A stretch of DNA of 64,000 nt from Candidatus Bathyarchaeota archaeon (lineage in GTDB: Archaea > Thermoproteota > Bathyarchaeia > Bathyarchaeales > Bathycorpusculaceae): contig JALHSY010000055.1 of the NCBI GenBank assembly GCA_022865455.1, positions 3,965 through 67,964 of the forward strand, written 5' to 3'. Below the pieces are notes generated by a model, which worked only from the letters and a program-made list of their open reading frames with translations, had not been told where the DNA came from and searched no databases. Both the position numbers and the translations under genes were made by a program. Positions within the stretch are counted from its first letter, which is position 1, and each line of letters begins with the position of its first letter. This document shows, piece by piece, positions 18,005 to 32,916 of this stretch.

Positions 18005-18007
18005 ATA

Positions 18008-18334: not shown

Positions 18335-18487
18335 CTACTTTATCCTGATTCTTTGTTTGATCCGATTTTCCCATTCCGCTTGTGTTACTATGCCCTTTTC
18401 TTCAAGCAATTCAACTAGGCTCGTAAGCATGGTATCTAACAAGTCAACTTCCTCTGAGAGTTCTCGTTTCGGTTTATTCTTTGCCAT
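18335..18487 (-). CDS. Small hypothetical protein (50 aa)
   Basis: My own translation gives MAKNKPKRELSEEVDLLDTMLTSLVELLEEKGIVTQAEWENRIKQRIRIK. Its start overlaps the stop region of the preceding small ORF. It is below the ORF-track size cut-off. Confidence 0.35.
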   Translation of the reverse strand: MAKNKPKRELSEEVDLLDTMLTSLVELLEEKGIVTQAEWENRIKQRIRIK

Positions 18488-18641
18488 GTTTTCCACCCTT
18501 CGTTAAATATCCCTTCTCTGAGAGCCAACTCATTATTATTGTTCGCAGCGTGTCTGAACACGTTTCGCCTATCGTTCCAACTAACTCTTTGTTCAGGAGA
18601 TCAGCAACATTTTCAGGAAGTGCTACTAGGACTTTTCTCAT
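18474..18641 (-). CDS. Small RHH/CopG-like protein (55 aa)
   Basis: My own translation gives MRKVLVALPENVADLLNKELVGTIGETCSDTLRTIIMSWLSEKGYLTKGGKHGKE. Its ATG overlaps the transposase TGA (ATGA). Confidence 0.4.
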   Translation of the reverse strand: MRKVLVALPENVADLLNKELVGTIGETCSDTLRTIIMSWLSEKGYLTKGGKHGKE

Positions 18642-19579: not shown

Positions 19580-19712
19580 TCATATATGTCTTGTGGTATG
19601 TCCACAAGATACCCAACTTGATAGTAGAAAATGTTTATTAGTAAGCATAAAGAAATACTTACTGTATTTAGTACTCAAAAATACTACAAGCATGTATGAT
19701 TGAGGGAAATGA

Positions 19713-19868
19713 ATGACAAAAAACCACATAACCGTTCGTTTGCCCCCAGAATACATAGAATGGCTTGAGAAAAAAGTTGAAGCCCACGATTATGGTTCAG
19801 TCAGTCATGGCATAACCCAACTTATCCGTGACGAAATTAGACGAGAAGAAGGCAAGAAAAATGAATGA
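19713..19868 (+). CDS. Small RHH (CopG-like) protein (51 aa)
   Basis: My own translation gives MTKNHITVRLPPEYIEWLEKKVEAHDYGSVSHGITQLIRDEIRREEGKKNE. Its stop overlaps the ATG of the next gene (ATGAATGA). Confidence 0.5.
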   Translation: MTKNHITVRLPPEYIEWLEKKVEAHDYGSVSHGITQLIRDEIRREEGKKNE

Positions 19869-20445
19869 AAAAAGGCGCATTGAAGACGACCTTTCGATTA
19901 CTCAGAAGGTATCTATCCTGCTTATTGGAGCCAACAGTTTTCAACCAATAAGAGGCAAACTTTGGTTCCAAAAAGAACTGTTTCTGATTGCACGAAATAT
20001 CGGAGAACTAGCCGAAGAAGCAGATTTTGAAAGTGACTTTATCGGACCATACTCTGAAATAGCCGACGAAGAGCTAGACCAACTTAAAAGGGAAGGCATC
20101 GTTTCCAAAGAAAAAGTTGAGTTGACCCCTCTTGGTCGTGATGTAGCTAATCGACTTAGAGTACAAAGCCCGCCTGCGATACTTAAATTAGTTTCAGAAA
20201 TGAAACGTTTCCTTAACAATCTGACAAAAGAGGAATTGCTTGGCTTCATATATTATTCATATCCAGAAATGCGAGTGGACTCTGTTGAGTTTGCAGAAAT
20301 CGACAAAAACAGAGTACAGATAGCTATTAGTTTGTTTGGAAAGCGCAAAGTAAGTCTGGGCAAAGCCGCACTGATTGCTGGGATGAGCCAAGATGATTTT
20401 ATTAGTGAATTGAAAGCAACAGGCGTCAGAGTTTTCGCGGAGTAG
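19861..20445 (+). CDS. Putative antitoxin: Panacea (DUF4065)-like N-domain plus UPF0175-like C-terminal HTH
   Basis: Contains GKLWFQKELFLIA...DFIGPYSEIADEEL (Panacea-like pattern) and C-terminal VSLGKAALIAGMSQDDFISELKATGVRVF (UPF0175-like). The track ORF starts at a GTG at 19828. The ATG at 19861 is coupled to the upstream RHH. Confidence 0.55.
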   Translation: MNEKRRIEDDLSITQKVSILLIGANSFQPIRGKLWFQKELFLIARNIGELAEEADFESDFIGPYSEIADEELDQLKREGIVSKEKVELTPLGRDVANRLRVQSPPAILKLVSEMKRFLNNLTKEELLGFIYYSYPEMRVDSVEFAEIDKNRVQIAISLFGKRKVSLGKAALIAGMSQDDFISELKATGVRVFAE

Positions 20446-20452
20446 ATACTTT

Positions 20453-20953
20453 TTGAAACTGGTTTTGGATGCATCTGTCATTATTGCATTCTTTAGAGAG
20501 CTAGATGATGGACAATTCCTTTATGCTCTAACCAAAAAGGGTTTTGAAATCTATGTTACAGATGGAGTCATAGTTGAGGTTAAGAAGGAACCAGAACTCA
20601 GTAGACTAAGACAAGCAATACGCGAAGGATGGATTGGAAGTAAGTCTGTTGAGAAGCACGAATTTGACAGGTTAAAGAACGTATATCCAATGTTGGATTA
20701 TGCAGAGGTTGAAGTCTTGATATGTTGTTTACGCTTTAGGTCTTATGACGAAGAATATTGTTGTGTTCTCGACGAAGGCCCTGGAAGGAAAATAGCAGAT
20801 TCACTGAACTTGGCAAAAACGGGCACGTTGGGTTTGCTCAAAATCTTGGAAGATAACAAAATCATTGATACTGAGTGTACGGAAAAGCTTTTGAACAAAC
20901 TGGAACAATCAACATTTAGATTGAGGAAACACAATCAGGGCATTACCCAATGA
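20453..20953 (+). CDS. PIN-like (DUF3368-type) nuclease, putative toxin
   Basis: N-terminal LVLDASVIIAF with acidic residues spaced as in PIN domains. UPF0175/DUF3368 is a known gene pairing. Confidence 0.6.
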   Translation: MKLVLDASVIIAFFRELDDGQFLYALTKKGFEIYVTDGVIVEVKKEPELSRLRQAIREGWIGSKSVEKHEFDRLKNVYPMLDYAEVEVLICCLRFRSYDEEYCCVLDEGPGRKIADSLNLAKTGTLGLLKILEDNKIIDTECTEKLLNKLEQSTFRLRKHNQGITQ

Positions 20954-22155
20954 CCCATCTGTATATAGACCCGATTTTTGTGGACAAGGAAGATGAGACA
21001 CTTTACAAGAGCAAGAGAATACGCGTTGATGGTAAATCATTTGACACTCCAATAATCTCGTATGATATGACTGTATTTAGAAGCAACGATAGGGTTGCTC
21101 CCCCGACAAAAGGATTAAATGAGATCTACCAGTTGATGGGAACAGAAAAGGTTCCTATAGGAAAACTAATGTCTAACATGAAGGCAGAAAAGGATTTTGA
21201 TGTTAGACTTCAGACCAAGTTTGGTCGAACTGATTCCGCTCATGAGGTAAACATCGGGATCTTGGAAAGCGAATCAGCATCGTATCCTTCGGGGACAGAA
21301 CTAGATTATGTTTTGAAAACAGCATCTATAATTTCGGACATTGTTCCAATTCCTAACTTTCATAGCATAACGGCAAACATTGACTCTGATTCTCAGTTCT
21401 TGGAATACACCAAGTTCTTGGAAAATGTGATTTCCAACGTCGAATCTTACAAAGATAGAAAACCCATCATGGGTGTGATTCCTAAACTATCATACACAAA
21501 CACTGAGAAACTGGTCGAGTTCTATATTGACAAAGGGCTTAACGCGTTTTATGTGGATTTTGCAGCGAGAAACTCGATTACTGCGCAGAGAGACTTCTTG
21601 CATGTCTTTAGTGTTTTGCATGAACACGACTTGATTGAGAAGAGTTTTGTTTACGCGTTCAATGTGGATGCTGGTAGACTGTCAAAGAATGCTACAGTTG
21701 TGAATGCAAGAGATATTCTGTCTTATGGATTTGGCTTTGACGCAATAGGCAGAAAACACAGACGAGTTAAGGCTAGTTCTGAGACATGGCGAAGAATCAA
21801 CACGTTGCCTAACAGAGTTCGATTATTCAATAGATACGATTATGGGTATCACAAAATTCTGGAAGCTGAGAAAATCAAGGAGATTTATCCTAGTGATTCA
21901 TGCATATCTCTTGAGAAGCTTTTGAGCAACTTCTATACAAATGTCCAAGAATTAAGAAGATGCGAGAACATGCTAAACAGTGAGCAACTTGGGCTTGAAG
22001 CTAATAACCTAAAATATGTTATTAAGAACGACAAACCAACCGAGTATTTGGCCGACAAGACATACGTAAAACCAATCGACCTCAAAACAATAACCAGATT
22101 CAGAAAATCATTATCTACCTCTGCCAAACCTAACTGGGAAAATTGGCTCAAATAG
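20950..22155 (+). CDS. Hypothetical protein (401 aa)
   Basis: Uninterrupted ORF overlapping the PIN-like stop by 4 nt. No motif recognised. Confidence 0.6.
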   Translation: MTHLYIDPIFVDKEDETLYKSKRIRVDGKSFDTPIISYDMTVFRSNDRVAPPTKGLNEIYQLMGTEKVPIGKLMSNMKAEKDFDVRLQTKFGRTDSAHEVNIGILESESASYPSGTELDYVLKTASIISDIVPIPNFHSITANIDSDSQFLEYTKFLENVISNVESYKDRKPIMGVIPKLSYTNTEKLVEFYIDKGLNAFYVDFAARNSITAQRDFLHVFSVLHEHDLIEKSFVYAFNVDAGRLSKNATVVNARDILSYGFGFDAIGRKHRRVKASSETWRRINTLPNRVRLFNRYDYGYHKILEAEKIKEIYPSDSCISLEKLLSNFYTNVQELRRCENMLNSEQLGLEANNLKYVIKNDKPTEYLADKTYVKPIDLKTITRFRKSLSTSAKPNWENWLK

Positions 22156-22160
22156 GCCAT

Positions 22161-22181
22161 CACAAATGACTTAACAGTATC
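22161..22181 (-). repeat. 21-nt repeat, inverted copy C (CACAAATGACTTAACAGTATC on + strand)
   Basis: Reverse complement GATACTGTTAAGTCATTTGTG matches copies A and B at 20/21 positions. It lies between the TA-like operon and the cassette array. Confidence 0.75.
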
Positions 22182-22325
22182 GCCATCACCCGACTGTTAA
22201 CACGGAGACGAATCACCCATCAAGTTAACATAACCTCGTTTTGGCTTCTGTCACGTCTTAGGGTCATGTAGCAGTGCAAAAATGCCTAGTATTGCACGTT
22301 TCGCCCCGGGAAAGAAGAGGGAGGG

Positions 22326-22532
22326 TTAAAAGTCGAACGTGAAGTCTTTGCCGTGTTTTTCGAGCCACTCTTCTAGTGCTTTTCTACCAATTTTGGTTTT
22401 CATTGCAGAGGGCATTTTGCCCTTGTGATTGGCCCATTTTACACAGTAATCATTGAGGTTTTTGGCTATTTCTGGTGTGAGGGTCAGGTTGAGACGTTCG
22501 CTTTCTTCAGCCTGTTCCTTCTTGCTTGGCAT
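22326..22532 (-). CDS. RHH (CopG-like) protein, last gene of cassette array
   Basis: 68 aa with LNLTLTPEIAKNLNDYC, which fits an RHH strand-helix. A variant leader copy lies at 22540-22570. Confidence 0.55.
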   Translation of the reverse strand: MPSKKEQAEESERLNLTLTPEIAKNLNDYCVKWANHKGKMPSAMKTKIGRKALEEWLEKHGKDFTFDF

Positions 22533-22579
22533 TTTGTATCACCCCACATTTGCACAAGGAGAAAAAGGGAAAGGAGTAT

Positions 22580-22924
22580 TTATACAGATTGGAGAAGGGT
22601 TTTGAGAGTGAATTCTTGTGGCTGAATGGACTTCATGTTTCTGAGCGAGAACTCTTGTGTTGATTGAGGTACGGGCCCGACTTCTTCAGATTTGTTGCTG
22701 CCGTCTTTCATGCAGAACATGTAGTACCACAGGAAATGGTTCGAAAGGTACTCCTCTTCAGCCGAATCCCATTCGTCCAGTCGGAATTCCGGGTTGAAGT
22801 CTGGGATTTGTGATTTAAGGTAGTCTTTGTTTTCGCTGTAGGTCAAAGTATCATCGATGAGGTGTTCGTCCAACTCATGTTTTCTGCAGAATATTTTCAG
22901 TTGTCTAAGTTGAAGGTTATTCAT
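22580..22924 (-). CDS. Hypothetical protein (cassette array)
   Basis: 114-aa ORF. The leader GGGGTGAAAATGA lies just upstream of the ATG at 22924. Confidence 0.55.
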   Translation of the reverse strand: MNNLQLRQLKIFCRKHELDEHLIDDTLTYSENKDYLKSQIPDFNPEFRLDEWDSAEEEYLSNHFLWYYMFCMKDGSNKSEEVGPVPQSTQEFSLRNMKSIQPQEFTLKTLLQSV

Positions 22925-22966
22925 TCATTTTCACCCCAAACAGAAAAAGGAGGAAAGTTTGTCGCT

Positions 22967-23425
22967 TCACGCTATTGGTCCTGCTTTCAACGAGAACCTT
23001 GGCACTGGCTTCATCGAGTTCTCATCCATAAGCTTATTGAGGAACTCGAGGATTTCCTTTTCTCTCTGCTTTTCTTTCTCTCTGCGGCCTAGCTCTTCAT
23101 AGCGTTGTGTCTTTTCGTTGTATACATCTGGAACCGAAACTACGAAGGATATTTTGGTGCGGTGACTGCTTGTATTGTAGAGTTTTTCTTCGATGTCGAA
23201 TCCCCAGTATTCATTCGCCTTTCGCTTCATGAAACTTATATGGGAAGGTGAGAATCGGACCGTGTACTCTCCAGTGTCAAGATATCTGAATCCACAGCTT
23301 CCAATCTCTATACGGACGCCAGAATGCGGCAGGTTCGTCACGATGTCTATAGCCACTTTGTGTACCAATTTTTGCAGGACGGTTTCGAACTGGTCAAAGC
23401 CATATTCACTTCTTATCGTTGGCAT
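22967..23425 (-). CDS. Hypothetical protein (cassette array)
   Basis: 152-aa ORF. The leader GGGGTGATAAAAG precedes the ATG. Confidence 0.55.
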   Translation of the reverse strand: MPTIRSEYGFDQFETVLQKLVHKVAIDIVTNLPHSGVRIEIGSCGFRYLDTGEYTVRFSPSHISFMKRKANEYWGFDIEEKLYNTSSHRTKISFVVSVPDVYNEKTQRYEELGRREKEKQREKEILEFLNKLMDENSMKPVPRFSLKAGPIA

Positions 23426-23440
23426 CTTTTATCACCCCAA

Positions 23441-23463
23441 CAGAAAAAGAGCCCTTACGGGCT
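23441..23463 (-). terminator. Hairpin AGCCC-GTAA-GGGCT followed by CTTTTTCTG
   Basis: The stop codon of 23455..24006 lies in the hairpin loop. The T-run is the T5 part of the conserved leader. Confidence 0.4.
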
Positions 23464-24006
23464 TTTTCGAGCTTTCATGTAACTTTCTAGAGGATAGAGC
23501 TGTATCTCGATTGCTTCAACTATGCGTTTCGCGTCAGTCTCCCAGCAAGGTATATCGTCTAGAACTCTGTGACCGGACTCGTTCTTTCTAAAGAAGTCTT
23601 TCAGATGACGAAGCGTTGGATACTGAGCCACCCATCCGCAGATGTTATAGTGTGCGATGCTGCCACAGCATAGATGAAGAAACTCGTAGAAGTATTTTGA
23701 CAGTACAGGGTCCGTGTCGACCGGGAGCCAGAGGACACCAGCAACAAGGTGACGGCCAGGCTTCTTCTCGCCGTACAGTCTGCCATGCTCCATGATTCTC
23801 TTGAGGTTCTGGAGTATCCGTTTCTTGCTCCATACACTATTTCCGTTGACCATGATTGTGGCTTTTACGTTGTTTTCGTCTATGAGGTCCTGAAGTTTCA
23901 GTCTAGCTGCAGGTTCAATCATATCTTCCAGGCGTTCTATTGTTTTCAGAAGTTCCTCGGCCTTGACTACAGTTTTTTTCTGTCCATGAACTTCTATTTT
24001 CAACAT
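23455..24006 (-). CDS. Hypothetical protein (cassette array)
   Basis: The track ORF starts at a GTG at 24018. The ATG at 24006 sits 9 nt after GGGGTG and gives MLKIEVHG... Confidence 0.55.
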   Translation of the reverse strand: MLKIEVHGQKKTVVKAEELLKTIERLEDMIEPAARLKLQDLIDENNVKATIMVNGNSVWSKKRILQNLKRIMEHGRLYGEKKPGRHLVAGVLWLPVDTDPVLSKYFYEFLHLCCGSIAHYNICGWVAQYPTLRHLKDFFRKNESGHRVLDDIPCWETDAKRIVEAIEIQLYPLESYMKARKSP

Positions 24007-24038
24007 TAGTATTTTCACCCCGAAGAAAAAAGGAGGAG

Positions 24039-24992
24039 TTATTGTTTCTTTTTTGCCTTCACCATCTCTGCTAGTGAGAATGTAGTTGGCGCCACAATCA
24101 TTGGCTGTTCTGGTTGCGGCTGTTCCTTCTGTTCTTTTGCCAAGTTCGCCAGTGAAAATTTGAATGGCGGCGGCATCTTGAAATAGTATTCTTGAAGGTC
24201 AGCGGGATCCCAAAGGTTGCCCAAGTTCCACACCGGGCCCGACGGCGTTGAAGCGTCCAGGTTAAGCATTAACGTGTCAGCTCGGATGATGCTGTAAGGA
24301 TGGTTGCTGAAGAGGGCCATGTTCACTAGGCATGCCCGGTAAAGCGTGACGTCTATTTCAATACCGAACAGGATTAAGGGTTTTTGAGGTTCTAGAAGAG
24401 TGGCTTCTATCAGAAATCGCCCGGTCCCGACACAGGGATCCATGTATGTTATCGGTTCATTCGGCTTCTTTTTCTTCGCAGTTTTCTCATTCTCCGTGAG
24501 AACGCATTTTATCATGAAGTCAACGATCTGTTTGGGCGTCAGCATCTGTCCAAGAGAGTTCTTCCGTCCTGCCAGCTCCAGTTCACAGAATAAGTCGCCT
24601 AAATGGTCCCACGGCTTTGCTCTGGCTGCCACGACATACTGTTCTAGCATGTCTGTCTTTTCAATGTGGTCTAGAATATCCTTCGCGTTAGATGAGAGTT
24701 CAGCCGCAGGATGTATCCATTGGAGCCTCTCGCTTTTCGTGAAAATTGCTCGGTTCTTCCACATTGGAAAGGGGTAAGGGCGTATCATGTTGCTACATTC
24801 TTCTTTGACCATTCGAACATCCATTGTGGGTTTTGAGTAGATCCAGGGATTCGACAGCAAACCCAGATGATAGGCTAACAGTTCAATCAGGACCTCCCAG
24901 CTCCTTCTATAACCAAAGTGGCTTTTCAGGTCGATTTCATGCAGCATCTCGTACAGTATGTCCTTAGGGTTTCCTGTGGCGTAGCGTTTCAC
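24039..24992 (-). CDS. N6-adenine DNA methyltransferase-like protein, apparently truncated or degenerate
   Basis: Contains motif X-like MLTPKQIVDFM, motif I DPCVGTGRFLIEA and LFGIEIDVTLYRACLVNM. PPPF sits at the position of motif IV (D/N)PP(F/Y), and only ~35 aa follow it. The GTG start lies 45 nt downstream of the leader. Confidence 0.7.
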   Translation of the reverse strand: MKRYATGNPKDILYEMLHEIDLKSHFGYRRSWEVLIELLAYHLGLLSNPWIYSKPTMDVRMVKEECSNMIRPYPFPMWKNRAIFTKSERLQWIHPAAELSSNAKDILDHIEKTDMLEQYVVAARAKPWDHLGDLFCELELAGRKNSLGQMLTPKQIVDFMIKCVLTENEKTAKKKKPNEPITYMDPCVGTGRFLIEATLLEPQKPLILFGIEIDVTLYRACLVNMALFSNHPYSIIRADTLMLNLDASTPSGPVWNLGNLWDPADLQEYYFKMPPPFKFSLANLAKEQKEQPQPEQPMIVAPTTFSLAEMVKAKKKQ

Positions 24993-25086
24993 GTTGATGG
25001 TGTGTATTAGTTTCTGAAGTTTCTCGCTCGTATTTTCACCCCAAAGAAAAAGAAAAAGAGGGGTTATGGAAGGTCTAAGAATCGGT

Positions 25087-25287
25087 TCACCTGTAGGTCT
25101 GTGAAGCCTTCACGTTTGGCGTTCTCTCGGAAAACTTCTTCCCAGCTCTTTCCAAACTGGGGAAAGCTGTTGTTCCAGATTTGCTGTATTCTGTCACTCT
25201 CTTGACTCCGTGTACCATTCTGACAAATGCGTCGTTTTCTGCCTGCTCGTCCCTGCATCTCTTCTGGTGTTTACTTCTTATCACCAT
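25087..25287 (-). CDS. Hypothetical small basic protein (cassette array)
   Basis: I prefer the ATG at 25287, preceded by GGGGTGAAGAA, over the overlapping 25064..25258 frame. Confidence 0.45.
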   Translation of the reverse strand: MVIRSKHQKRCRDEQAENDAFVRMVHGVKRVTEYSKSGTTAFPSLERAGKKFSERTPNVKASQTYR

Positions 25288-25299
25288 TTCTTCACCCCG

Positions 25300-25809
25300 T
25301 TAGAAAAAGGAGGGATTGGCTATTTCGTACATTCCAAGCTCATCATATATTCTGTTGTAGCCTTCGATGTTTTGGTCGCTGAAACTCCATGCTCTTACCA
25401 GTCTGAGCAACTGCCGGCTTAATCTGATCTGTTTGCCAGCTATCTTGTACGCCCATTTTGCCCGGTCCAGTATGTAGGATATCGTGTTTACTTCAGGGGA
25501 CTCTGTTGTGCCGGTCTTTCTGTACCGTTCTACTTTTGCCCAATAATTGTCGATGGTGTAATTTTCTTCTCTAGGACAGTCAGGATAAGTCTCTTCTAGG
25601 TACTCATTGTTCTCCAGGCAGAGATACCATGTTGAGTTGTTACCGTTATAGCGTTCCACGTCCAGCTGTAGTAGTAATTGGCAATCTCGGCAATGTGGTA
25701 GATGCTCAATGAATTTGACTTCACCTCTCAGAAAGGTAATGGCTTCCATCAGCTGTCCTTCAACAATGAGCAGCCACTCACGAGTGTTCAATCGGTTCAG
25801 AAGCATCAA
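25300..25809 (-). CDS. Hypothetical protein (cassette array)
   Basis: 169-aa ORF. The reading frame stays open for a further 90 nt up to the leader at 25899 without an ATG. Confidence 0.55.
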   Translation of the reverse strand: MMLLNRLNTREWLLIVEGQLMEAITFLRGEVKFIEHLPHCRDCQLLLQLDVERYNGNNSTWYLCLENNEYLEETYPDCPREENYTIDNYWAKVERYRKTGTTESPEVNTISYILDRAKWAYKIAGKQIRLSRQLLRLVRAWSFSDQNIEGYNRIYDELGMYEIANPSFF

Positions 25810-25933
25810 GAGTTTCTTGCTTGTCTTCGGCGGCGCCTTCGGTTTCTCCTCAGGTCGTTGAATCCGCTGTAAAAGTAGATGTATTTTGCTCGTAAGGACA
25901 CCCCAAACAGAAAAAAGGGAAAAGGAAGTTGAC

Positions 25934-26137
25934 TTATACGATTCTCAGCACTAGCCAGATTACGCCCGCTATTATCGCCAATGCCAGGAAGAACAGGAAG
26001 CCTAGGAAGAACAGGATTGTAAGGATCGGCCTAAGCAATATGGCCATGACTACGGCGCCCAGAAGACTTAGGACAGACAGTGCCAACAGCAGCGCGGCTA
26101 TGCCAAGAAATATTCTTTTTCCAATCATTGACATCAC
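25934..26137 (-). CDS. Small membrane protein, two predicted TM helices
   Basis: Contains IFLGIAALLLALSVLSLLGAVVMAILL and ILFFLGFLFFLALAIIAGVIWLVL. The leader abuts the start. Confidence 0.5.
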   Translation of the reverse strand: MMSMIGKRIFLGIAALLLALSVLSLLGAVVMAILLRPILTILFFLGFLFFLALAIIAGVIWLVLRIV

Positions 26138-26168
26138 CCCGAACAGAAAAAAAAGGGAAGGCTATGGG

Positions 26169-26507
26169 CTATATTGCTGAAACTACTCTGAACTTGTTTC
26201 CGCATGACTCGCATTCTACGGTATAGTTGGCGTCGGGTTCGACTGTCCGAGTCTCGCCGCAGCGTGGACATTCAACATCAACAATGTCATCAAGCGTCAA
26301 GGGAAGGTGTACGACTGGAATTTGGTCAGTTTTGGCTGCCGCAATCTTGACTCTTTCTTCAAGCTGAGTTGTCGGTTCACATCCTAGGCTTTGGTAATGT
26401 TCTTCACAGAGGTATGCATGTGGTCCGAACTGTGTTTTGCTGTCATATTTTGCAGGTCTATCTCTTCCTGACTGTTTGCATACGTCACAGTTGGGAAGTT
26501 TCTCCAT
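26169..26507 (-). CDS. Zinc-ribbon protein
   Basis: Contains CDVC...CEEH and CPRCG...CESCG Cys pairs. Confidence 0.55.
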   Translation of the reverse strand: MEKLPNCDVCKQSGRDRPAKYDSKTQFGPHAYLCEEHYQSLGCEPTTQLEERVKIAAAKTDQIPVVHLPLTLDDIVDVECPRCGETRTVEPDANYTVECESCGNKFRVVSAI

Positions 26508-26554
26508 CTGTATTGTTCTCGTCTGGTTTCACCCCAAACAGAAAAAAAGAGAAA

Positions 26555-26821
26555 CTATCTTCTGATTTCAACAAAAGCTTTCAGGGAGAATCGCTTGTTG
26601 GTTATGGGTTCCGGCGGAAACTTGATAGCTTCCTGAATGTAGAAGTCAGCAAAGTAATATGTGTCACACTGTCTCCAAGCATCTGCAACTATATGTGCCG
26701 CTATGCTCTCTGGATTCTCCGGGTTCGTTTCCTCTTTTGGGATAACTCTGGACTTCAAAAGGTTCTCCCTAACGTAGTTTCTAAGTTTCTCGAAGGCCTC
26801 GCTTGAACAATCGTCCAACAT
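26555..26821 (-). CDS. Hypothetical protein (cassette array)
   Basis: 88-aa ORF directly after leader copy 26828. Confidence 0.5.
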   Translation of the reverse strand: MLDDCSSEAFEKLRNYVRENLLKSRVIPKEETNPENPESIAAHIVADAWRQCDTYYFADFYIQEAIKFPPEPITNKRFSLKAFVEIRR

Positions 26822-26902
26822 TTAGTACACCCCGAACAGAAAAAGGAGAAACTAATGTAAGTTTTCTTCACCCCAATAGAAAAAGGGGAAGCTAGTTGGA
26901 AG

Positions 26903-27938
26903 TTAAGTTATGAATATTGGCATCCGCATTACGTTTTTTGCTGTTGTCTGGTAGTATTTGACTAGCACTTGAAGGTTTGTTGAGATGGCCCTGTAGGGTT
27001 CGCCTACTTGTTCGTAGCTGAATGACGCTTTCAGAGGCTTAGGTGAGTCTGACAGCTGGTCTTTTGTTTTTCTGAGCTCCCACTCGTTAAACCCGCTGCC
27101 AACGCATCCACGATATCTTCCGTTTTCATCTGCTAAAACCAGGCTGCCGAAGAATGAGTTTCTAGCGTTCTCTCCAGCTGTGTATCCAACTACGTTGCAG
27201 ACCTCGAAAAGCCAGTTCTTCACTTTTAGCCAGCTGTAGGACCTCTCATGCTCGTATGGGCTCTCAATTTGTTTTGCTATTAAGCCTTCGCGGTTCATGC
27301 TGATGGTCTCTTCCCATGCACTTAAGAGGTCTTTCTGGAAAGGAACGAATTGTACAGTGGCATCTTTGACCTTGGAGAGAAGTTGCTGCAGCAGCTCTTT
27401 TCTTTTCCAGTAAGGTATCTTCTCAGTATTGCCGCTCTTGACCTTGAGAACATCGAAAGCTTCGAATGTTATGGGAAAACTGTCTCTTAACATGTAGTCT
27501 GGGAACTGGGTTGCACATCTTCGTTGTGCCGACGTAAACTCTTCCTCGCCCGTTTTAGGGTTTATGTAGACGACTTCGCCGTCTAGCGTCCACATGCCAG
27601 GAATCTGTTTGAGAGCCTTAACTATCTCTGGCAGGCGTATTTTCTACGCATACGACAATGACGATACTGTCTAATTGCGTTATGCTGTGTAGATTACGCC
27701 GTGCCTGTTCTGCAATGTTACATTACCGTCGCCTATAGCGATGACACGTGTACCGTCCCATTTACGGGCTATTTTAGGAGGTAGCTTTCCGTTCGGCGAC
27801 GAAACCGCGTATCATCAGTTTCTTTAGTTGTTCTACAATGGCTTTCCTGTACGCTACGGTTGCAGCAGGCCCGTCTAAGCCGTTTTGTCTGACTAGTGAC
27901 ATGTCTACTTCGACTTCATGGCATAGCATTGGCATCAT
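26903..27938 (-). pseudogene. ATP-dependent DNA ligase, disrupted near motif I
   Basis: The ORF 26903..27595 carries WTLDGEVV, EGLIAKQIESPYE, SWLKVK and GSLVLAD..GRYRGCVGSGF. My own translation upstream finds MMPMLCHEV...GFVAERK, stop at 27774. A +1 frame then gives ARKWDGTRVIAIGDGNVTLQNRHG (KxDGxR), stop at 27680. A third frame gives RLPEIVKALKQIPGMWTLDG. Confidence 0.7.
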
Positions 27939-27939
27939 T

Positions 27940-28125
27940 CTAGATTCTTCCTTCCTCGCTGAGTTTGGTGTTGAACGCTTTAATGTTGTCTGCTAACCAT
28001 TGGCCAGCATCCCGATCTAGAAATTCCTTGAACTCTTGCAGCTCTGCTTCTGTCGGTTCCCGTCCAAAAACATTGTCTTTCAGCTGTTCCTTCAGTTCCT
28101 CATCTGTCCACTTCACTTGATACAT
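27940..28125 (-). CDS. Hypothetical small acidic protein (cassette array)
   Basis: 61 aa. Its stop abuts the ligase ATG, and the leader lies upstream at 28131. Confidence 0.5.
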   Translation of the reverse strand: MYQVKWTDEELKEQLKDNVFGREPTEAELQEFKEFLDRDAGQWLADNIKAFNTKLSEEGRI

Positions 28126-28168
28126 TTTTACACCCCGTAGAAAAAAGGGGGATTTGAACCCACAGGGG

Positions 28169-28960
28169 TTACTTCTTCTTTGCAGACGGGATAATGAGAA
28201 GGGCCTGGATCGGGGGCAGTGTCTCGAGGGTCTTCACTGGCCGTATTGGGATCTTCACGCCTGGCACGTCTCGCAGGCAGCGGTATTCGACTTTCTTGTT
28301 GCTGATTCGGAGCAGCCATACGAATTGGCCGTCTTTCACTATGGGTACGAGGAACGCGTAGTACTGTGTGAAGCCGCCGTTGGAATAGGTGGTTATCGCT
28401 ATTTCGTCGCGTTTGATTGCGGCGTCAGCTTCATTCCAGAGTTTTAGGTCGTTGCGTGGATCCGCTGCGGGCAGCTCGTATTCTTCATGTATCAAGAAAC
28501 CCTCAAGCATTGTTGAAGAGACCCAATAGGCATCTCCCTGGTCCTGCACTTCCGTTGGTGTTTCTTTGACTTCGATGCGTTCGGTCGGAGGGTAAGGTGC
28601 AACAGGATCTCCGATGCTGCTGTCAGGGTTCACTAGGTAATACTCGATCTTTTTCTTGTCAACCGTTTCGCCTTTCTTGTTGACGGCAAGATTCTTTGTG
28701 TGCTCGAGTATGCATCTAGCCTTAGCTACAGGTATCAGGTTGCCTTTCGAGTCCTTCAGTATGGTTTCGACCTGCAACTCTTCGCCTGTACCGACAATCT
28801 CCCAATGGCTCGTGTCGACTACTCGACACTCCCTCACTGGTTCGCCGTCTACCAGCTCCGTAAGCTGCGGGTCTTGGATCAGTAGTGCGTTGCCGACTCT
28901 CTGCTTGCACACTCTCACGTCTGCATTGCCTATTTTCAGCCAAATCGTCGATGTGGGCAT
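28169..28960 (-). CDS. Hypothetical protein, weak Ku-like pattern
   Basis: 263 aa with N-terminal TIWLKIGNADVRV and C-terminal YELPAAD...EIAITTYSNGGFTQYYAFLVP...LLRISNKKVEYR. These are loosely reminiscent of prokaryotic Ku. It lies next to the ligase. Confidence 0.5.
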   Translation of the reverse strand: MPTSTIWLKIGNADVRVCKQRVGNALLIQDPQLTELVDGEPVRECRVVDTSHWEIVGTGEELQVETILKDSKGNLIPVAKARCILEHTKNLAVNKKGETVDKKKIEYYLVNPDSSIGDPVAPYPPTERIEVKETPTEVQDQGDAYWVSSTMLEGFLIHEEYELPAADPRNDLKLWNEADAAIKRDEIAITTYSNGGFTQYYAFLVPIVKDGQFVWLLRISNKKVEYRCLRDVPGVKIPIRPVKTLETLPPIQALLIIPSAKKK

Positions 28961-28995
28961 TTTCTACACCCCAAAACAGAAAAAGGAGGGAAAGT

Positions 28996-29229
28996 CTAGT
29001 CTACTATCTTCGGGAACTTGTTCACGAACAAGTATATGCTGTCAGAGATTGAGCATTGATGTTTCTCAAGCAGTTCCTCAAACTTCGCTTTAGTGATAAC
29101 ATGGTCGTTCGGATCAATTTGATGGTCTAGTCTTTCAATATCGATTGCTGGAGTTGAATTCAGGAAGCACTCTTTTAAGCAAGCAACTACTCGGTCATAG
29201 ACTTTCTTCTTTTCATCCATAAGAAACAC
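28996..29229 (-). CDS. Hypothetical protein (cassette array)
   Basis: 77 aa, with the leader upstream at 29227. Confidence 0.5.
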   Translation of the reverse strand: MFLMDEKKKVYDRVVACLKECFLNSTPAIDIERLDHQIDPNDHVITKAKFEELLEKHQCSISDSIYLFVNKFPKIVD

Positions 29230-29259
29230 CCCAATAGAAAAAAGAGAGGGATTTTTAGA

Positions 29260-29487
29260 CTACCGTTTCTTCCTCAAGCGAGCTGCCACTATTGTTCTCA
29301 ATGTGAATCTGGGTTCACCTAGAAACTTGGAGCATGCGTACTTGACTAGACAGTCGTTACAGTCTCCGTCCCGCTGCAGCTTGCGGCACTTCAGAACCTT
29401 CACTTGGCAGCCGACAGCCACTCTGTTTGGAATGACTATGGTCACCAGTTTTCCTTCGTTCTCGCAGAATACTGACGTGAACATCAC
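29260..29487 (-). CDS. Hypothetical Cys-rich small protein (cassette array)
   Basis: 75 aa, with the leader upstream at 29485. Confidence 0.5.
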   Translation of the reverse strand: MMFTSVFCENEGKLVTIVIPNRVAVGCQVKVLKCRKLQRDGDCNDCLVKYACSKFLGEPRFTLRTIVAARLRKKR

Positions 29488-29508
29488 CCCGACAGAAAAA
29501 AGGAGAGT

Positions 29509-29793
29509 TTAGAAGCTGTCTTTCAGCCGACGCATAATCTCTTCTTCATTGAAATTTTCAGCTTCGATAATCTCCGTTGGGATAACAATCGGATGAAGAG
29601 CATTGCGAGCGGTTCTTATCTCCGATGAACCTACTATGTTTTTGACTGCCTCTATAATGGCTTCGCCTTCTCCTACAGCTTCTAGAATCTGCACACTCAC
29701 CAGAACAACAGCTATTTTAGGCAAAACTTTCACCCCAGAAAGCATTGTAGCGTCTACGCTAACCCTGCCCCTTTTCCTTACCGTGCAAATCAC
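29509..29793 (-). CDS. Hypothetical protein, first gene of cassette array
   Basis: The track start at 29793 is a GTG. An internal ATG at 29745 (MLSGVKVL) is an alternative. No full leader copy lies upstream. Confidence 0.4.
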   Translation of the reverse strand: MICTVRKRGRVSVDATMLSGVKVLPKIAVVLVSVQILEAVGEGEAIIEAVKNIVGSSEIRTARNALHPIVIPTEIIEAENFNEEEIMRRLKDSF

Positions 29794-30436
29794 TTCGCAT
29801 GGCTGCCTGCGTTTGCCTACTCAAAAATTGAGAGCTTGCAAGACAATGAATTTGGGGGTGGCTCTTACAAGCATGTGGCAAAACGTAAAGAGGCTTCTGT
29901 TTTGTGTTTCAACAGGCTATCCCTCTTATGTCACTGGCTTCCCCGCCAATCACCTCTAAAAGAGAGCCCTACCATCACCTTAAAACATTAGCTTTAAGGT
30001 CGGTTGGTGTCCTAGTCGGTTACCTGTCCAGTGTTCTACATTGGGGTGGTGCCTGTTTCCCATACAGGCGGCGGTCATAACACTAGACAGACCTTTAGGG
30101 CGAACAGCATAGACGCTTCTCCATTTGTCGTGGGCTTTTCTCCAGCCGAGCTTACGCTGGCGAAAGTTTCACATTTTCAAGCAATAAAAAATGCTGGCTC
30201 TCCTTTCGCTTTCCTCACGTCTCCTTTCTAATTAAACTCCAAGAAGGGCTACGCCTTCTGTTTAACCTAGGTGACGCATTACGAGGACGACTTTTAGAGT
30301 GCCCACGTGTTAGTGCCTTTATTCTGTCCTACGGGCTTTTAGCTCTGGGGGGTGATCTTTCCATACCGTCGTCGGGCTAGCCGAACGACTATAGTACAGA
30401 CAAAAGGGGAGGGTTGGTGCGATAAGACTAGGTGTC

Positions 30437-30925
30437 TTACAGCTTTTTCTTCTGCTTGCTCTGCTCTAGCGCCTTCTGCATCCATTCGGACAGGCTGAAG
30501 CGGGGTGCGACGGGGTGTCCTAGCTCTTTCAAAGAGTCAGGAATAGCCACAGCATCGCAGTATTTCTGAGCTTGGACTAGAGGCTTCACTTTGTCTTGGA
30601 ATGGCTTGCGGGCTGTGGCAGCCGTCTTTCTGAGGTCTGTCAAGTCCTTCTGGTTGGCTTTGATTGCGGCTCTCAGGTCATCAGTAGCGTCTTCTATGTA
30701 AGAGTCGATGTTCTCAGAGAGTTGTTTACCCTTCTCTCTGACAGCCTTAGTCTCGTCTTTGGTCTTCTCAGCCATGTCCTGCTGAGTCAGTCGGCGAGCC
30801 ATGAAATAGCCGTATCTTTCAGCTACAAGCTCAGTAAAAGCCTCTAGCATGTCCATCTTGGATGGAACTGCCTCGGCTGGAACAGCCTGAGCAGTTTGAG
30901 CAGATTGGGCATTACGTCTTGGCAA
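30437..30925 (-). CDS. Hypothetical helical protein
   Basis: 162-aa ORF with a TTG start. An internal ATG giving MDMLEAF is possible. Confidence 0.45.
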   Translation of the reverse strand: MPRRNAQSAQTAQAVPAEAVPSKMDMLEAFTELVAERYGYFMARRLTQQDMAEKTKDETKAVREKGKQLSENIDSYIEDATDDLRAAIKANQKDLTDLRKTAATARKPFQDKVKPLVQAQKYCDAVAIPDSLKELGHPVAPRFSLSEWMQKALEQSKQKKKL

Positions 30926-30998
30926 GGTTTATTTTCTCCCTAATTTGAGGAAACTAACCCCTTGCGCTATTTTGCCGTAGAGGATTTCAGAAAGGCTT

Positions 30999-31292
30999 TT
31001 ACTCCCTGTCGCCCAATCCAGAAAAAGGGATATTTTGGAGACTTGGAAACTTGCGTATAGCTTTCCAAAACCCCACGTTATTGATTACACGTTCCAGAGT
31101 GCCGACTGTCTCCTTATCGCTGAACCGCACAATACTAAAATTGTCGAAGTCATGCAGAGGTATCCTTATCACAAAAACCCAACATTCCTTATGCGACTTG
31201 TTTCTGTGTTTTGCCATGCAGTCCTTAAACGTGGAAACGTCTTGACTCTTGACTATGTAACCGCAGTCTTTACACTTGCCCACGTACAACAT
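30999..31292 (-). CDS. Hypothetical zinc-finger-like protein
   Basis: 97 aa with a CKDCG...C..H..SH pattern. Confidence 0.45.
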   Translation of the reverse strand: MLYVGKCKDCGYIVKSQDVSTFKDCMAKHRNKSHKECWVFVIRIPLHDFDNFSIVRFSDKETVGTLERVINNVGFWKAIRKFPSLQNIPFSGLGDRE

Positions 31293-31715
31293 ACCAAAAC
31301 CCCTGTTTATTTGTGGGCGACAGTTTAGAGAAGCCTTAGTAATCCTCAGTAATCAAATCTTAAAGGCTTTATTCTGCTTCAAAAGTGTTTTATTCCGCCT
31401 TTTTGAATATTCGCCTAAGATTTAGGCGTTTACTCACTTATGCGTCTTATTTAAGACGTGAAACGCTATTCTAAAGGTTTTTTGCGTTTCGCCCTTCCAG
31501 AGCTACACTTTTTAACCTTCTCCGAAGGCACAGCCAAAAACTCACTAAATAGGCGCAATAGCCTTTTTAGGACAGCCTAAGGCTTGTTTGGTAAATTGTG
31601 GCGTTTTTGTTCACTCTGAAACACCTAACAGCTCAACAGAGTTGCACAGCTTTAGCGGTCTTGCGTTTATCTCTAGGCTTCTAAGTTTGCCGTTTAGCTT
31701 GTTCTTGCCCATGTT

Positions 31716-31744
31716 GGTTATCGTTGCACTTTAGCACGATAACC
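31716..31744. promoter_or_regulatory. Perfect 9-bp inverted repeat GGTTATCGT-N11-ACGATAACC
   Basis: Read directly. It lies in the 900-nt non-coding region 31293-32186. Confidence 0.5.
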
Positions 31745-31778
31745 AAAAGCACTTCGTGCAAACAACTATTTAAACATG

Positions 31779-31798
31779 CGTTTTATTCACATAAAACG
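31779..31798. promoter_or_regulatory. Palindrome CGTTTTAT-TCAC-ATAAAACG (copy 2 of 3)
   Basis: Same 8+4+8 structure and the same GAA 3' flank as the copies at 8601 and 34631. Confidence 0.6.
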
Positions 31799-32136
31799 AA
31801 CATGACAAAGACATATCTTTGTCCAAATCTGAATAATCTTGCCATATTTCCATTATTCCGACATTATTTAACCTTAGAAGCTAGAACGGATAAGGTAAGC
31901 TAGGCTATGGAAGCTTAAGGACTCTATTCTAAGGCTTAATATGCGACAGGAACCCAAATCTAAGGATAAGTATCCACCTGAAAGCTCCTTTCAAGGATAT
32001 GTTCAACAGAGAAGATTCTAAGAGAAGTTACCTTGGAAGCGACCGTGTAGTCTGGGATTTTCATTTTGGCCTGTTTTAGCAAGAGGGAGGAGACGCCGCC
32101 TGCGCACTTACGTCTAGGGAGTTGTCTTTTCTCAGA

Positions 32137-32916
32137 ATCTCGAGAGCTGTTCCAAGTCCAGATATGCTTCCTCCTATAATTGAGATTTGTCTGGCAGACA
32201 AGTTGTTCGCCTCGAGATGATTTATTTTCACATTCTGTCTATTTGTGCTTTTAGTTCCAGATACTTCTCGAGATATTGCCAGTTGAAGGGATTATCTCGA
32301 GATGGTAAAATATTTGTACTCGAGACTGAAGAAGAGGACAGTCTCGAGAAGAAGGCGCCAGATGAGCCAGATGAGCTTAAAGGGTTATTCGAGAAGCCTC
32401 GAGATGAAGGAAAAGAGGATGAGGAGATACTCAGAGAGGTATTCGAGTCAAATCCTAATGCCGACATAAAGAAGCTTGTGGAAGCAACTGGGCTTCCTGC
32501 CCTGACACTTGGCAGGATCAAAGGACTAATCTCGATACGACGTAAGCGAGACTCGAGAGCATCTGGGAAGCATCTGGAAGAGGGCGAGGTAAGTGAACCG
32601 GACGCCAGGCAGCTTGTGGCTCAGTTCGGTCGGGATGGACTGAACAAGCTCAAACGCGGGTTCCTGAAGAAAACTTTGGCTCTTGCGCCTGGAATGGCTG
32701 ACAAGACAGCCGAGTGGATCCTTCACAAGTGGGACATAAACCCGAGAGTTCAGGACGATCCGAACACATTCTATGAGATGCTTCACAACGATGCTGGGTT
32801 GAAACCGAACATCGCCATTTCGATTGCCAAGGATGTTTTCAGTTTGGAGGAGCAGTACGCTGATATTCTCGAGGACAAGGGCGAGAAACCTATTTTCATC
32901 TCAGGCAGTCCTCGAG
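32137..32916. repeat. Cluster of ten CTCGAG(A) iterons
   Basis: CTCGAG occurs at 32139, 32211, 32267, 32296, 32319, 32343, 32398, 32552, 32868 and 32911, plus TTCGAG, CTCGAT and CTCAGAG variants. The sites fall in all three phases of the overlapping ORF. Confidence 0.75.

Follow-up and report, generated by a model that had tools for sequence, protein, structure and literature searches.

A repeated leader with a Shine-Dalgarno core between the genes of a putative mobile element of Bathyarchaeia

The array and its leader motif

The 64,000-nt stretch of Bathyarchaeia DNA analyzed here (contig JALHSY010000055.1), hereafter referred to as the window, carries on its minus strand, at approximately 22300-29740, an array of mostly small genes of a putative mobile element, in which all intergenic gaps but one hold the same short motif. 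In its full compact form, this leader motif consists of a pyrimidine block, a run of five to eight T residues, the dinucleotide CT, a short spacer, and the hexamer GGGGTG. The array contains 16 copies of GGGGTG and one of GGGGCG, all of which are located between open reading frames (ORFs). The first G of GGGGTG is found at 29736, 29490, 29232, 28972, 28136, 26874, 26833, 26535, and 26140 in the upstream part of the array and at 25904, 25298, 25042, 24021, 23438, 22937, and 22545 in its downstream part; the GGGGCG copy is found at 22307. Fourteen sites have the full compact form, 13 of which precede ORFs and one of which is an orphan.

When the window was searched with the pattern TTTTTCT-N1-6-GGGGTG, 14 matches were returned, all of which lie between 22932 and 29500 of the minus strand. 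According to dinucleotide shuffles (n = 100), only 0.02 matches are expected, and none of the 100 shuffled sequences reached 14. The remaining approximately 52 kb of the window contain no match to this pattern, and the hexamer alone occurs there twice on the minus strand and eight times on the plus strand. The comparison with host signals covers the host genes in this part of the window. None of these genes has GGGGTG before its start codon or a pyrimidine block; they are preceded by Shine-Dalgarno (SD) cores of the AGGTGA, AAGGAG, and GAGGA types or by no such core. The canonical GGAGGTG, in turn, is not present in the array. A preliminary description of this DNA, which had proposed the array of repeated leaders, has thus located it correctly, and the competing possibility named there, a generic translation signal of the host, does not apply within the window, where the motif is confined to the element.

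The proposed count of sixteen genes with the same leader held in part only. The array consists of 15 intact ORFs and a broken ATP-dependent ligase gene, which has no leader, and the terminal GGGGCG copy is not followed by an ORF. Among the leaders, 14 are full compact copies, whereas the site at 22545 is split, the site at 29736 is reduced, and one full copy is the orphan. Furthermore, the element is not a one-off but belongs to a family of at least 45 loci. Fifty related loci were fetched for comparison (labels in the L061-L110 series).

Genes and leaders of the array

All features of the array are located on the minus strand and are described here from its upstream end. Two co-directional element genes (30437-31292), encoding proteins of 97 aa (30999-31292) and 162 aa (30437-30925), precede the array. 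Both have degenerate leaders without GGGGTG, and their region is homologous in many of the related loci. The 162-aa gene ends with a pyrimidine/T-run block that has no ribosome site after it, and a structured RNA (29845-30420) follows directly.

The leader of the first gene is reduced to TTTCT-GGGGTGA (29730-29742) and has neither C-block nor T5 run. This first-gene type, 'GCRTAGACGCTYACAA..CTTCT-GGGGTG', is also found before the first genes of L062, L066, L068, L069, L073, L080, and L086. Gene 1 (71 aa; 29509-29724) starts with TTG at 29724 and has no family match. Gene 2 (72 aa; 29260-29478) is preceded by the leader CTCTCC-T6-CTGTC-GGGGTG(A) (29485-29507), and gene 3 (74 aa; 28996-29220; ATG start) by TCCCTCTC-T6-CTATT-GGGGTG (29227-29251). 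The leader CTTTCCCTCC-T5-CTGTTTT-GGGGTG (28967-28994), at which homology with L068 breaks, introduces gene 4 (28169-28960), which encodes the 263-aa marker protein of the family and is linked to the ligase gene in relatives. The marker protein has no Pfam or PHROG match, and an AlphaFold2 model of its family had a pLDDT of 48 and was unusable for a fold search. Gene 5 (61 aa; 27940-28125; ATG start) follows the leader TCCCCC-T6-CTAC-GGGGTG (28131-28152), which is a breakpoint of homology with L067 and L089.

The ATP-dependent DNA ligase pseudogene (26903-27938; Pfam DNA_ligase_A_M on its 3' part) begins 1 nt past the stop codon of gene 5 and is the sole gene of the array without a leader. It contains one frameshift near 27780 and three in-frame stop codons within about 45 nt (27682-27644), and the intact ligase of L062 matches it in two frames, with residues 1-47 and 46-321, respectively. 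The subsequent leader CTTCCCC-T5-CTATT-GGGGTGA (26869-26891) is the orphan. It has no ORF, lies 41 nt ahead of the next leader, and resembles a scar left by the deletion of a gene from between two leaders.

The next leader, TTTCTCC-T5-CTGTTC-GGGGTG (26828-26851), precedes gene 7 (88 aa; 26555-26821; ATG start). Gene 8 (26169-26522) encodes a zinc-ribbon protein of 117 aa, and its leader TTTCTC-T7-CTGTTT-GGGGTGA (26530-26554) is again a breakpoint with respect to L067 and L089. The C-terminal zinc ribbon of this protein matches ribosomal protein S27e at a borderline score (24.0 bits, cut-off 24.5), which probably reflects a generic zinc ribbon; eS27 is located at the platform of the small ribosomal subunit. 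Gene 9 (25934-26128), with the leader CCTTCCC-T8-CTGTTC-GGGGTGA (26135-26161), encodes, judging from its translation, a small and very hydrophobic membrane protein of 64 aa without family match.

In the downstream part, gene 10 (197 aa; 25300-25893) has the leader CTTCCTTTTCCC-T6-CTGTTT-GGGGTG (25899-25928), and gene 11 (66 aa; 25087-25287; ATG start) the leader TCCCTCC-T5-CTAAC-GGGGTGA (25293-25315). The leader CCCCTC-T5-C-T5-CTTT-GGGGTGA (25037-25063) belongs to gene 12 (24039-25031), which encodes an N6 DNA-methylase-like protein of 330 aa (Pfam N6_Mtase, 35.4 bits, cut-off 20.4). Gene 13 (183 aa; 23455-24006), gene 14 (152 aa; 22967-23425), and gene 15 (114 aa; 22580-22924) all start with ATG and are preceded by CTCCTCC-T6-CTTC-GGGGTGA (24016-24038), CTC-T5-CTGTT-GGGGTGA (23433-23451), and CTTTCCTCC-T5-CTGTTT-GGGGTGA (22932-22957), respectively. 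The last gene, gene 16 (68 aa; 22326-22532), was previously assigned to the ribbon-helix-helix (RHH) proteins; this assignment has no Pfam support, and only a weak DUF2274 match was found. A degenerate terminal copy, CCCTCCCTCTTCTTTCCC-GGGGCG (22302-22332), has no ORF and marks the end of the array. In searches against Pfam and PHROGs, most ORFs of the element remained without a match.

The leader of gene 16 (22540-22576) is split, consisting of CTCCTTTCCC-T5-CTCC, a 12-nt insert TTGTGCAAATGT, and GGGGTGA. Inserts of this type are also found before the orthologous last gene in L063, L078, L079, L084, and L086. The conserved inserted sequence TTGTGCAAA(TGT) is located at 22546-22557 (minus strand) in the window and at about 15500 in L063, 16640 in L078, and 18500 in L079, which has two copies of it. 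It may be an operator for autoregulation of this small gene.

A family of related elements

The 263-aa protein has 47 homologs, all of which are unnamed metagenomic proteins. Two of them are encoded in metagenome-assembled genomes of Candidatus Bathyarchaeia from SPRUCE peat. Because one homolog sits in a 567-kb contig, the elements of the family are regarded as integrated. The motif occurs about 550 times, on the coding strand, in 45 or more related loci, down to protein identities of about 31-40%. In each of the 50 loci compared, the leader is found on the strand of the 263-aa gene and hardly ever on the other one. Counted on the strand of the 263-aa gene and on the opposite strand, GGGGTG occurs 45 times versus once in L068, 38 times versus once in L079, and 34 times versus twice in L101, the proteins of which are only about 40% identical.

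Relatives encode the ligase, the 263-aa protein, and the N6-methylase-like protein. Some also encode an archaeal SSV-type or tyrosine integrase and a protein of about 525 aa with InlB B-repeats. These integrases, found in three of the fetched loci only, support the earlier proposal of a mobile element. In the window itself, neither an integrase nor an integrase fragment was found. Owing to the missing integrase and the dead ligase gene, the copy in the window is probably a decaying element.

Scanning IMG/VR with the leader pattern returned single chance matches only. Two candidates with two to three matches about 119-120 nt apart, L014 and L053, were rejected; L014, the one inspected, is an unrelated tandem repeat. 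A scan of IMG/VR with a profile of the 263-aa protein found no relative, and a scan with a pattern for the structured RNA at the head of the array found 15 chance matches without leaders. The 263-aa protein had no match in GenBank phage records and PLSDB plasmids, and the phage records also contained no match to the head RNA. Viruses of Bathyarchaeia were surveyed in 2024 without mention of such a motif. The motif can serve as a sequence tag for a class of Bathyarchaeia proviruses that is not captured by IMG/VR, GenBank phage records, and PLSDB.

Structure of the leader

The leaders in the tallies amount to about 550 distinct sequences (547, 551, or 565, depending on the analysis), with the consensus YCCYC-T5-8-CT-N2-5-GGGGTG. 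When 551 leaders are anchored on GGGGTG, G accounts for at most 3% at positions -16 to -6, C for about 50% at -17 to -13, and T for 60-89% at -12 to -6, and A predominates at +6 to +8. Conservation therefore extends beyond the GGTG core, as had been claimed in the preliminary description. The six bases before the T-run are typically TCCCTC, CCCTCC, or CCTCCC. The run itself is 5 (217 leaders), 6 (182), 7 (115), or 8 nt (18) long. It comprises 5-7 nt in 91% of the leaders, is directly preceded by C in 93%, and lies 4-7 nt from GGGGTG; T5-7 followed by CT is found in 448 of 565 leaders (79%). In strict leaders, defined by a strict upstream half (n = 227), the hexamer is exactly GGGGTG in 225 cases. 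The leader is asymmetric, with one purine-free strand, and contains no inverted repeat. About 35 of 547 leaders in the family are without an ORF of at least 40 codons.

Inserts of 12-25 nt separate the two halves in about 8% of the leaders. They often consist of a CGTTTT...AAAACG hairpin or, before the last gene, of the TTGTGCAAA-type sequence. Small hairpins of the form CGTTTT-N8-10-AAAACG between T-run and GGGGTG were seen in L067 (4265-4310), L068 (13831-14850 and 16310), and L078 (12394 and 15701).

The upstream half follows the stop codon of the preceding gene. When an ORF stops 10-30 nt before GGGGTG, 92-96% of the leaders have a run of at least five T, and when it stops farther away, 30-60% do. 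First-gene leaders have no pyrimidine block. After the 162-aa gene, the block is present in 20 of 20 aligned loci, where a non-coding RNA comes next and no ribosome site, and it also closes some arrays without a ribosome site. The stop half of the leader belongs to the end of the preceding cistron. Since the pyrimidine block tracks the preceding stop codon and occurs without a ribosome site, and since inserts can split the leader, the two halves are separable modules.

In the leader alignment, no conserved TATA-like or other signal was found upstream of the pyrimidine block. Relative to the start codon, the T-run occupies positions -24 to -13, which is 6-8 nt too close for a TATA box. The array is therefore most simply regarded as one operon.

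Ribosome-binding site and start codons

The fixed spacing of 4-7 nt to start codons and the restriction to the coding strand make it close to certain that GGGGTG(A) is a Shine-Dalgarno site, as had been suggested before. A canonical start codon is located 3-10 nt past GGGGTG in 434 of 547 leaders (ATG 253, TTG 136, GTG 45), with a peak at 5 nt and 79% of the spacings at 4-6 nt. Across the related loci, the motif is restricted to the coding strand apart from rare copies of GGGGTG on the opposite strand. With the canonical archaeal 16S 3' end (...GAUCACCUCC), GGGGUGA can form 7 bp including one G.U pair. The use of G rather than A at the wobble position would suit a site that pairs with the ribosome and with any C/U block.

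Four genes of the window have no canonical start codon at SD spacing. Each of them has an in-frame ACG 5-7 nt past the SD, from which translation is inferred to start. These codons are located on the minus strand at 29476-29478 (gene 2, 6 nt past the SD), 26520-26522 (gene 8, 7 nt), 25891-25893 (gene 10, 5 nt), and 25029-25031 (gene 12, 5 nt). The N-termini of gene 8 orthologs begin at the same place, orthologs of gene 10 have TTG at the aligned codon and a conserved (M)SK, and orthologs of gene 12 in L069, L078, and L089 also have ACG. Among 78 leaders that lack a canonical start codon and have a long ORF, 34 are followed by an in-frame ACG, compared to about two expected by chance. Start codons also vary within individual protein families. 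The gene 2 family (72 aa) uses ACG (6), TTG (4), and ATG (1); the 263-aa family TTG (13), ATG (8), ACG (2), and GTG (1); the 152-aa family ATG (12), ATA (3), TTG (2), GTG (1), and ACG (1); and the 114-aa family TTG (5), ATG (4), CTG (2), and GTG, ATT, and ATC (1 each). The elements appear to possess a private ribosome site that is strong enough for the weak start codons TTG, GTG, ACG, ATA, ATT, ATC, and CTG. Literature searches found no report of ACG initiation in archaea. The ACG start codons had escaped the preliminary description, as had the structured RNA at the head of the array.

A structured RNA at the head of the array

Between the 162-aa gene and gene 1, about 700 nt are free of ORFs and have 66-97% nucleotide identity among loci. 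This stretch harbors the head RNA, which is conserved in nearly all loci of the family, even where the proteins are about 40% identical, and is located at the head of a GGGGTG array in at least 18 loci. Examples beyond the window were found in L061-L106 (e.g., L064, 7808-8241). In the window, block A (about 30420-30205) contains 26 predicted pairs, 12 of which show compensatory changes. Block B (about 30165-29845) contains 43 pairs, with changes on both sides in 27 of them. In its alignment, 95.8% of the cells are paired, compared to 75.1% in shuffled controls (reached in 0 of 500) and 38-47% in slid controls, and the covariation is 0.600, compared to 0.233 after shuffling. The head region is a real structured RNA of roughly 600 nt. 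Rfam models gave no matches over the window at gathering thresholds and, at E <= 5, only a chance snoRNA match (E = 4.2). This large and strongly covarying RNA represents a new class in its own right.

Conserved motifs of the head RNA are TGATTGGCGGGG (29952-29941), AACCGACTAGGAC, and CCACCCCCAA (29861-29852), of which the first and the last are conserved single-stranded motifs of block B. CCACCCCCAA, which lies in the 3' part of the head RNA, hardly varies in the alignment of block B and is unpaired in its consensus structure. CACCCC (29860-29855, minus strand) is the exact complement of the GGGGTG of the leaders. It is kept in both sequence subtypes of the head RNA, 120-270 nt before the first GGGGTG of the array. 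In the minimum free energy and centroid folds of the window, CACCCC pairs with the SD of gene 1, and among 26 loci, 17 show this pairing. These observations suggest an upstream anti-SD for each ribosome site of the array, which would be provided by the head RNA for gene 1 and by the C-block for the other genes.

Proposed function of the junctions and alternative explanations

The reading preferred here, which is tentative and judged to have a little less than an even chance, is that the motif forms the regular stop-to-start junction within a single long operon and combines an oligo-U attenuator with a maskable private ribosome site. A mobile element or provirus that has integrated into a Bathyarchaeia genome would harbor this operon. 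At each junction, the oligo-U tract would act as a weak, translation-sensitive transcription attenuator in the manner of an aCPSF1/FttA-dependent internal-operon terminator, and the C-rich, anti-SD-like flank would form a hairpin with the GGGG of the ribosome site. In this way, translation of one cistron would determine both read-through and the loading of ribosomes at the next. The first cistron would probably be gated by the head RNA with its CACCCC, and one switch could control the whole array. As a side effect or a second function, single genes are swapped between related elements at the near-identical junctions. The roles of the pyrimidine block in attenuation and masking and the gating by the head RNA are proposed with moderate confidence. 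It is rather doubtful that a single RNA switch, in which the anti-SD head RNA is combined with a chain of translation-dependent read-through events, controls 15-40 genes. Alternatively, the head RNA could be a processive antiterminator or a trans sponge for the private ribosome sites, and either function would be just as new for archaea.

Oligo-U tracts are an established archaeal termination signal. The T-run may also resemble a terminator consensus of SSV1, TTTTTYT, on which a literature search found nothing relevant. In agreement with the position of archaeal oligo-T terminators, the run comprises at least five T shortly after a stop codon in an intergenic spacer. Such U-tracts are bound by aCPSF1 (PMC8716108), partial U-tract terminators within archaeal operons tune downstream expression (PMC10450193), and termination of archaeal virus transcripts by oligo-dT has been reported (bioRxiv 10.64898/2026.06.17.732947). 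[quoted passage not shown]

The hairpin between the C-block and GGGG, which is predicted in most leaders, has a mean energy of -5.8 kcal/mol and a pairing probability of 0.88, and these values fall to -2.7 kcal/mol and 0.43 after a C-to-T change in the leader. The predicted pairing of the SD is 0.85 in standard leaders and 0.68 in first-gene leaders without T-run (p = 5e-8). Covariation of C-block and GGGG is impossible, GGGG being invariant.

Several observations weigh against the attenuator-and-masking reading. Composition-matched shuffles of the upstream sequence fold as well as the leaders do (-6.2 kcal/mol, P = 0.74); the hairpin between CCTCC and GGGG, which had been proposed from the sequence earlier, is thus predicted, but shuffled upstream sequence equals it. 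C-blocks also occur without a subsequent ribosome site, and the lengths of T-run and spacer do not compensate for each other (r = 0.00). Runs of five or more T are not depleted inside the ORFs of the elements (127 observed, 127 expected), unlike runs of A, C, and G, and any termination would therefore have to be weak or dependent on the RNA being untranslated. If 15-40 weak terminators are arranged in series, little distal transcript would be left unless read-through is assisted. Pairing of CACCCC with GGGGUG amounts to 0.57, compared to 0.63 with a shuffled spacer, and because shuffled spacers pair equally well, the case for CACCCC is one of complementarity and conservation. Finally, the complementarity of the SD was determined with the canonical archaeal 16S end, which may not be that of the host, and the host genes gave too few usable sites to infer the host anti-SD.

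Two stricter versions of these ideas found no support. A fixed distance between C-block and SD does not agree with the uncorrelated lengths of T-run and spacer, and a strong intrinsic terminator does not agree with the number of T5+ runs inside ORFs. A role of the T-run as a terminator, the resemblance to which was noted in the preliminary description, is plausible in that the run tracks the preceding stop codon, although T5+ runs are not avoided in the ORFs.

As an unlikely alternative, the leader could serve translation only, with a strong SD preceded by an unstructured, U-rich, and G-free standby or enhancer tract and with its uniformity being caused by recombinational copying. The tight spacing between SD and start codon, the frequent weak start codons (TTG 136, GTG 45, ACG 34), the T5 runs that are not avoided in ORFs, and the coincidence of leaders with recombination junctions are in line with this explanation. 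In addition, the start-associated sequences of Cluster K mycobacteriophages have been suggested, without proof, to act in translation initiation (PMC3203893). However, the pyrimidine block tracks the preceding stop codon and not the SD, is absent from first-gene leaders, and is present before the non-coding RNA and at array ends. Moreover, the division into C-block and T-block and the invariance of GGGGTG over protein identities of about 31-98% exceed the needs of a spacer. Archaea are also not known to possess an S1-type enhancer-binding protein, which counts against a function in translation only.

It appears quite unlikely that the junctions are binding sites for one element-specific regulator, either a protein, by analogy with the repressor that binds the stoperators of Cluster A mycobacteriophages, or the head RNA as a trans anti-SD sponge, which switches the whole array. 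Such a regulator would account for the near-invariance of the hexamer in strict leaders and for the absence of GGAGGTG, although the latter should bind the ribosome at least as well, as well as for the intergenic position of the sites in one orientation. The exact complement conserved in an element-encoded structured RNA, the small zinc-ribbon proteins encoded by the element, and the RHH proteins encoded by relatives would provide candidates. Against this stand the shortness of a 6-nt pairing and the flanks of CACCCC, which differ between the subtypes. A duplex scan for a trans partner of the pyrimidine tract also gave no outstanding candidate, the purine-rich sites of the head RNA being no better than matches in coding sequences, and the fixed spacing to the start codon is already explained by ribosome binding.

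Processive antiterminator RNAs are known from phage HK022 (put RNA) and from Bacillus (EAR element). By analogy, the oligo-T tracts could be real terminators and the head RNA a processive antiterminator, which is considered very unlikely. A T5-8 tract after almost every cistron and a large covarying RNA exactly at the array head in at least 18 loci would fit such a system, and it would explain distal expression despite 15-40 U-tracts. On the other hand, the argument is purely one of analogy, T5 runs are not avoided in ORFs, the head RNA has no Rfam relative, and we know of no antiterminator RNA in archaea.

Promoters at each junction, with the T-run as TATA box and every gene as its own transcription unit, were rejected for the lack of a TATA-like signal and the wrong geometry and can hardly be considered. 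The tract is T-rich, split leaders such as that at 22540-22576 place the T-run about 30-34 nt before the ATG, as would fit a leaderless transcript, and TATA-like boxes occur in some long intergenic regions of relatives, but with a T-run at -24 to -13 and an archaeal TATA box centered at about -26/-27, transcription would start inside the ORF, the C-rich flank contains no purine block resembling a transcription factor B recognition element, and the start codons (TTG and GTG in 42% of the 434 canonical cases, ACG in 34 more) fit SD-led and not leaderless initiation. Equally remote is a cassette system with site-specific recombination sites comparable to integron attC sites, which are imperfect inverted repeats that fold as single strands and have an IntI-type integrase beside the array; gene-by-gene mosaicism with breakpoints at leaders, the orphan leader (26869-26891) beside a normal one, and tyrosine recombinases in some relatives would be expected from such a system, but the leader is asymmetric and not an inverted repeat, there is no integrase in the window and one in only three fetched loci, these integrases are of the chromosomal-integration type, the fixed start spacing shows a role in expression, and homologous recombination between near-identical 25-nt patches suffices, as proposed for T4-like phages (PMC4122927).

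Gene exchange at the junctions

The modular build suggested for the array in the preliminary description is borne out by the breakpoints of homology between related elements. Considering the internal ends of high-scoring segment pairs with at least 88% identity, 76% are located within -30 to +15 of GGGGTG, compared to 11% for random positions. Where the window shares blocks of homology with L067, L089, and L068, these break off exactly at leaders, and window positions 28138 and 26546 are joined in L067. In relatives, the ligase gene is located upstream of the 263-aa gene, whereas it is located downstream in the window. The junctions are points at which related elements exchange single genes, and this shuffling needs no dedicated recombinase. 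The resulting single-gene mosaicism bounded by junctions shows how such elements trade genes.

Comparison with known systems

The closest analogs of the junctions are the start-associated sequences (SAS) of mycobacteriophages and the promoter early stem-loops (PeSLs) of phage T4. Like the junctions, the SAS and extended SAS of Cluster K mycobacteriophages are short, asymmetric, virus-specific repeats with an SD core (PMC3203893). Both occur in a single orientation 3-7 nt ahead of many start codons, have essentially no copies in the host, precede unrelated gene families, and have an upstream extension in some copies. The function of SAS is still unproven (PMC3203893). In contrast to the junction (YCCYC-T5-8-CT-N-GGGGTG), which belongs to an archaeal element, the SAS has the sequence GGGATAGGAGCCC and belongs to bacteriophages. 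It is found at a subset of non-structural genes that mostly start with ATG, while junctions occur at almost every gene of the array and often precede weak or near-cognate start codons. The extension of the SAS is a 17-bp inverted repeat, whereas in the junction its place is taken by an oligo-T/pyrimidine tract that is linked to the stop codon of the preceding gene. As consensus and host differ, the junction is an analog of SAS and not a member of this group.

PeSLs of T4-like phages (PMC2839356, PMC4122927) are, like the junctions, conserved composite expression signals flanking small genes of mostly unknown function. Both act as points of homologous exchange that shuffle genes and form the boundaries of insertions, deletions, and replacements. 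A PeSL combines a stem-loop terminator with an early promoter, whereas a junction combines an oligo-T tract with a ribosome-binding site; neither a promoter nor a stem-loop before the T-run was found in the junctions, the flank of which has no G.

Oligo-U in short intercistronic spacers is shared with the internal-operon transcription termination sites of Methanococcus maripaludis and with termination by aCPSF1/FttA (PMC10450193, PMC8716108). In M. maripaludis, intercistronic U-tracts cause partial termination and tune downstream expression (PMC10450193). These sites mark some of the junctions in cellular operons, and their flanks are not fixed. In the element, nearly every junction has one stereotyped tract, which is flanked by C-rich sequence on its 5' side and followed 4-7 nt downstream by a fixed ribosome site.

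In translational coupling by RNA unfolding, as in MS2 coat-lysis and Escherichia coli rpmI-rplT (PMC12548453), the SD is masked by a nearby complement that can be covered by the upstream ribosome. In the element, the stop codon is usually about 0-20 nt from the C-block. The known cases are single gene pairs with idiosyncratic structures, in contrast to a predicted mask of 4-5 bp at 15-40 junctions, which is no better than composition allows.

Stoperators are bound by the phage repressor, and their distance to start codons is not fixed, in contrast to the junctions, the spacing of which points to ribosome binding. Like the junctions, the stoperators of Cluster A mycobacteriophages (mentioned in PMC3203893) are asymmetric, are present in many intergenic copies in one orientation, and belong to a temperate element.

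The organization of gene expression in uncultivated archaea and their mobile elements is largely unknown. Literature searches found no paper on this motif or on such an intercistronic signal in archaea. We know of no virus-specific, genome-wide intercistronic signal in this domain, and the junction system suggests an undescribed archaeal way of running a long operon. The family provides more than 550 natural variants of one 25-nt junction that unites termination at U-tracts, coupling of cistrons, and recruitment of ribosomes, the three steps that are hardest to study in archaea. It raises the questions of whether attenuation in archaeal operons can be gated by translation and how far a strong SD relaxes the choice of start codons.

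Additional features of the locus

In the leader that follows the 263-aa gene, the C-block is formed by the end of a tRNA T-arm-like sequence, GGGTTCAAATCCCCC (28161-28147, minus strand). This sequence was also seen in L075 (about 6979), L094 (about 386), L062 (about 13869), and L104 (about 16832), where a similar piece lies just upstream of the integrase gene. It could be the remnant of an attachment site and hints at an origin of the C-block and T-run from the 3' end of a tRNA gene and its terminator. No tRNA genes were found in the window.

Upstream of the 97-aa gene, an A/T-rich stretch of about 900 nt is free of ORFs (31300-32200, minus strand) and contains a canonical TATA-like sequence, TTTAAATA, at about 31770. 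It may be the promoter or origin region of the element. Conservation of this stretch among relatives is partial, and the sequence from 31693 to 30212 matches L061 and L092.

The region flanking the array at 12944-22155 encodes a CAP12/Pycsar-type TIR protein, a GmrSD restriction enzyme, an IS240-type DDE transposase, and a UPF0175/DUF3368 pair, and the element sits in a defense or mobility island. A repeat of about 35 nt, CAYCACAAATRACTTAACAGTATC, occurs in one orientation at 16202-16239, 22145-22182, and 37032-37078. It is located at the 3' ends of the GmrSD gene, of a 401-aa ORF converging on the array, and of a gene encoding a 454-aa HATPase_c protein. Farther away, three very large consecutive ORFs (1751, 1329, and 981 aa; 48433-60589, minus strand) show a strong GC and AT skew.

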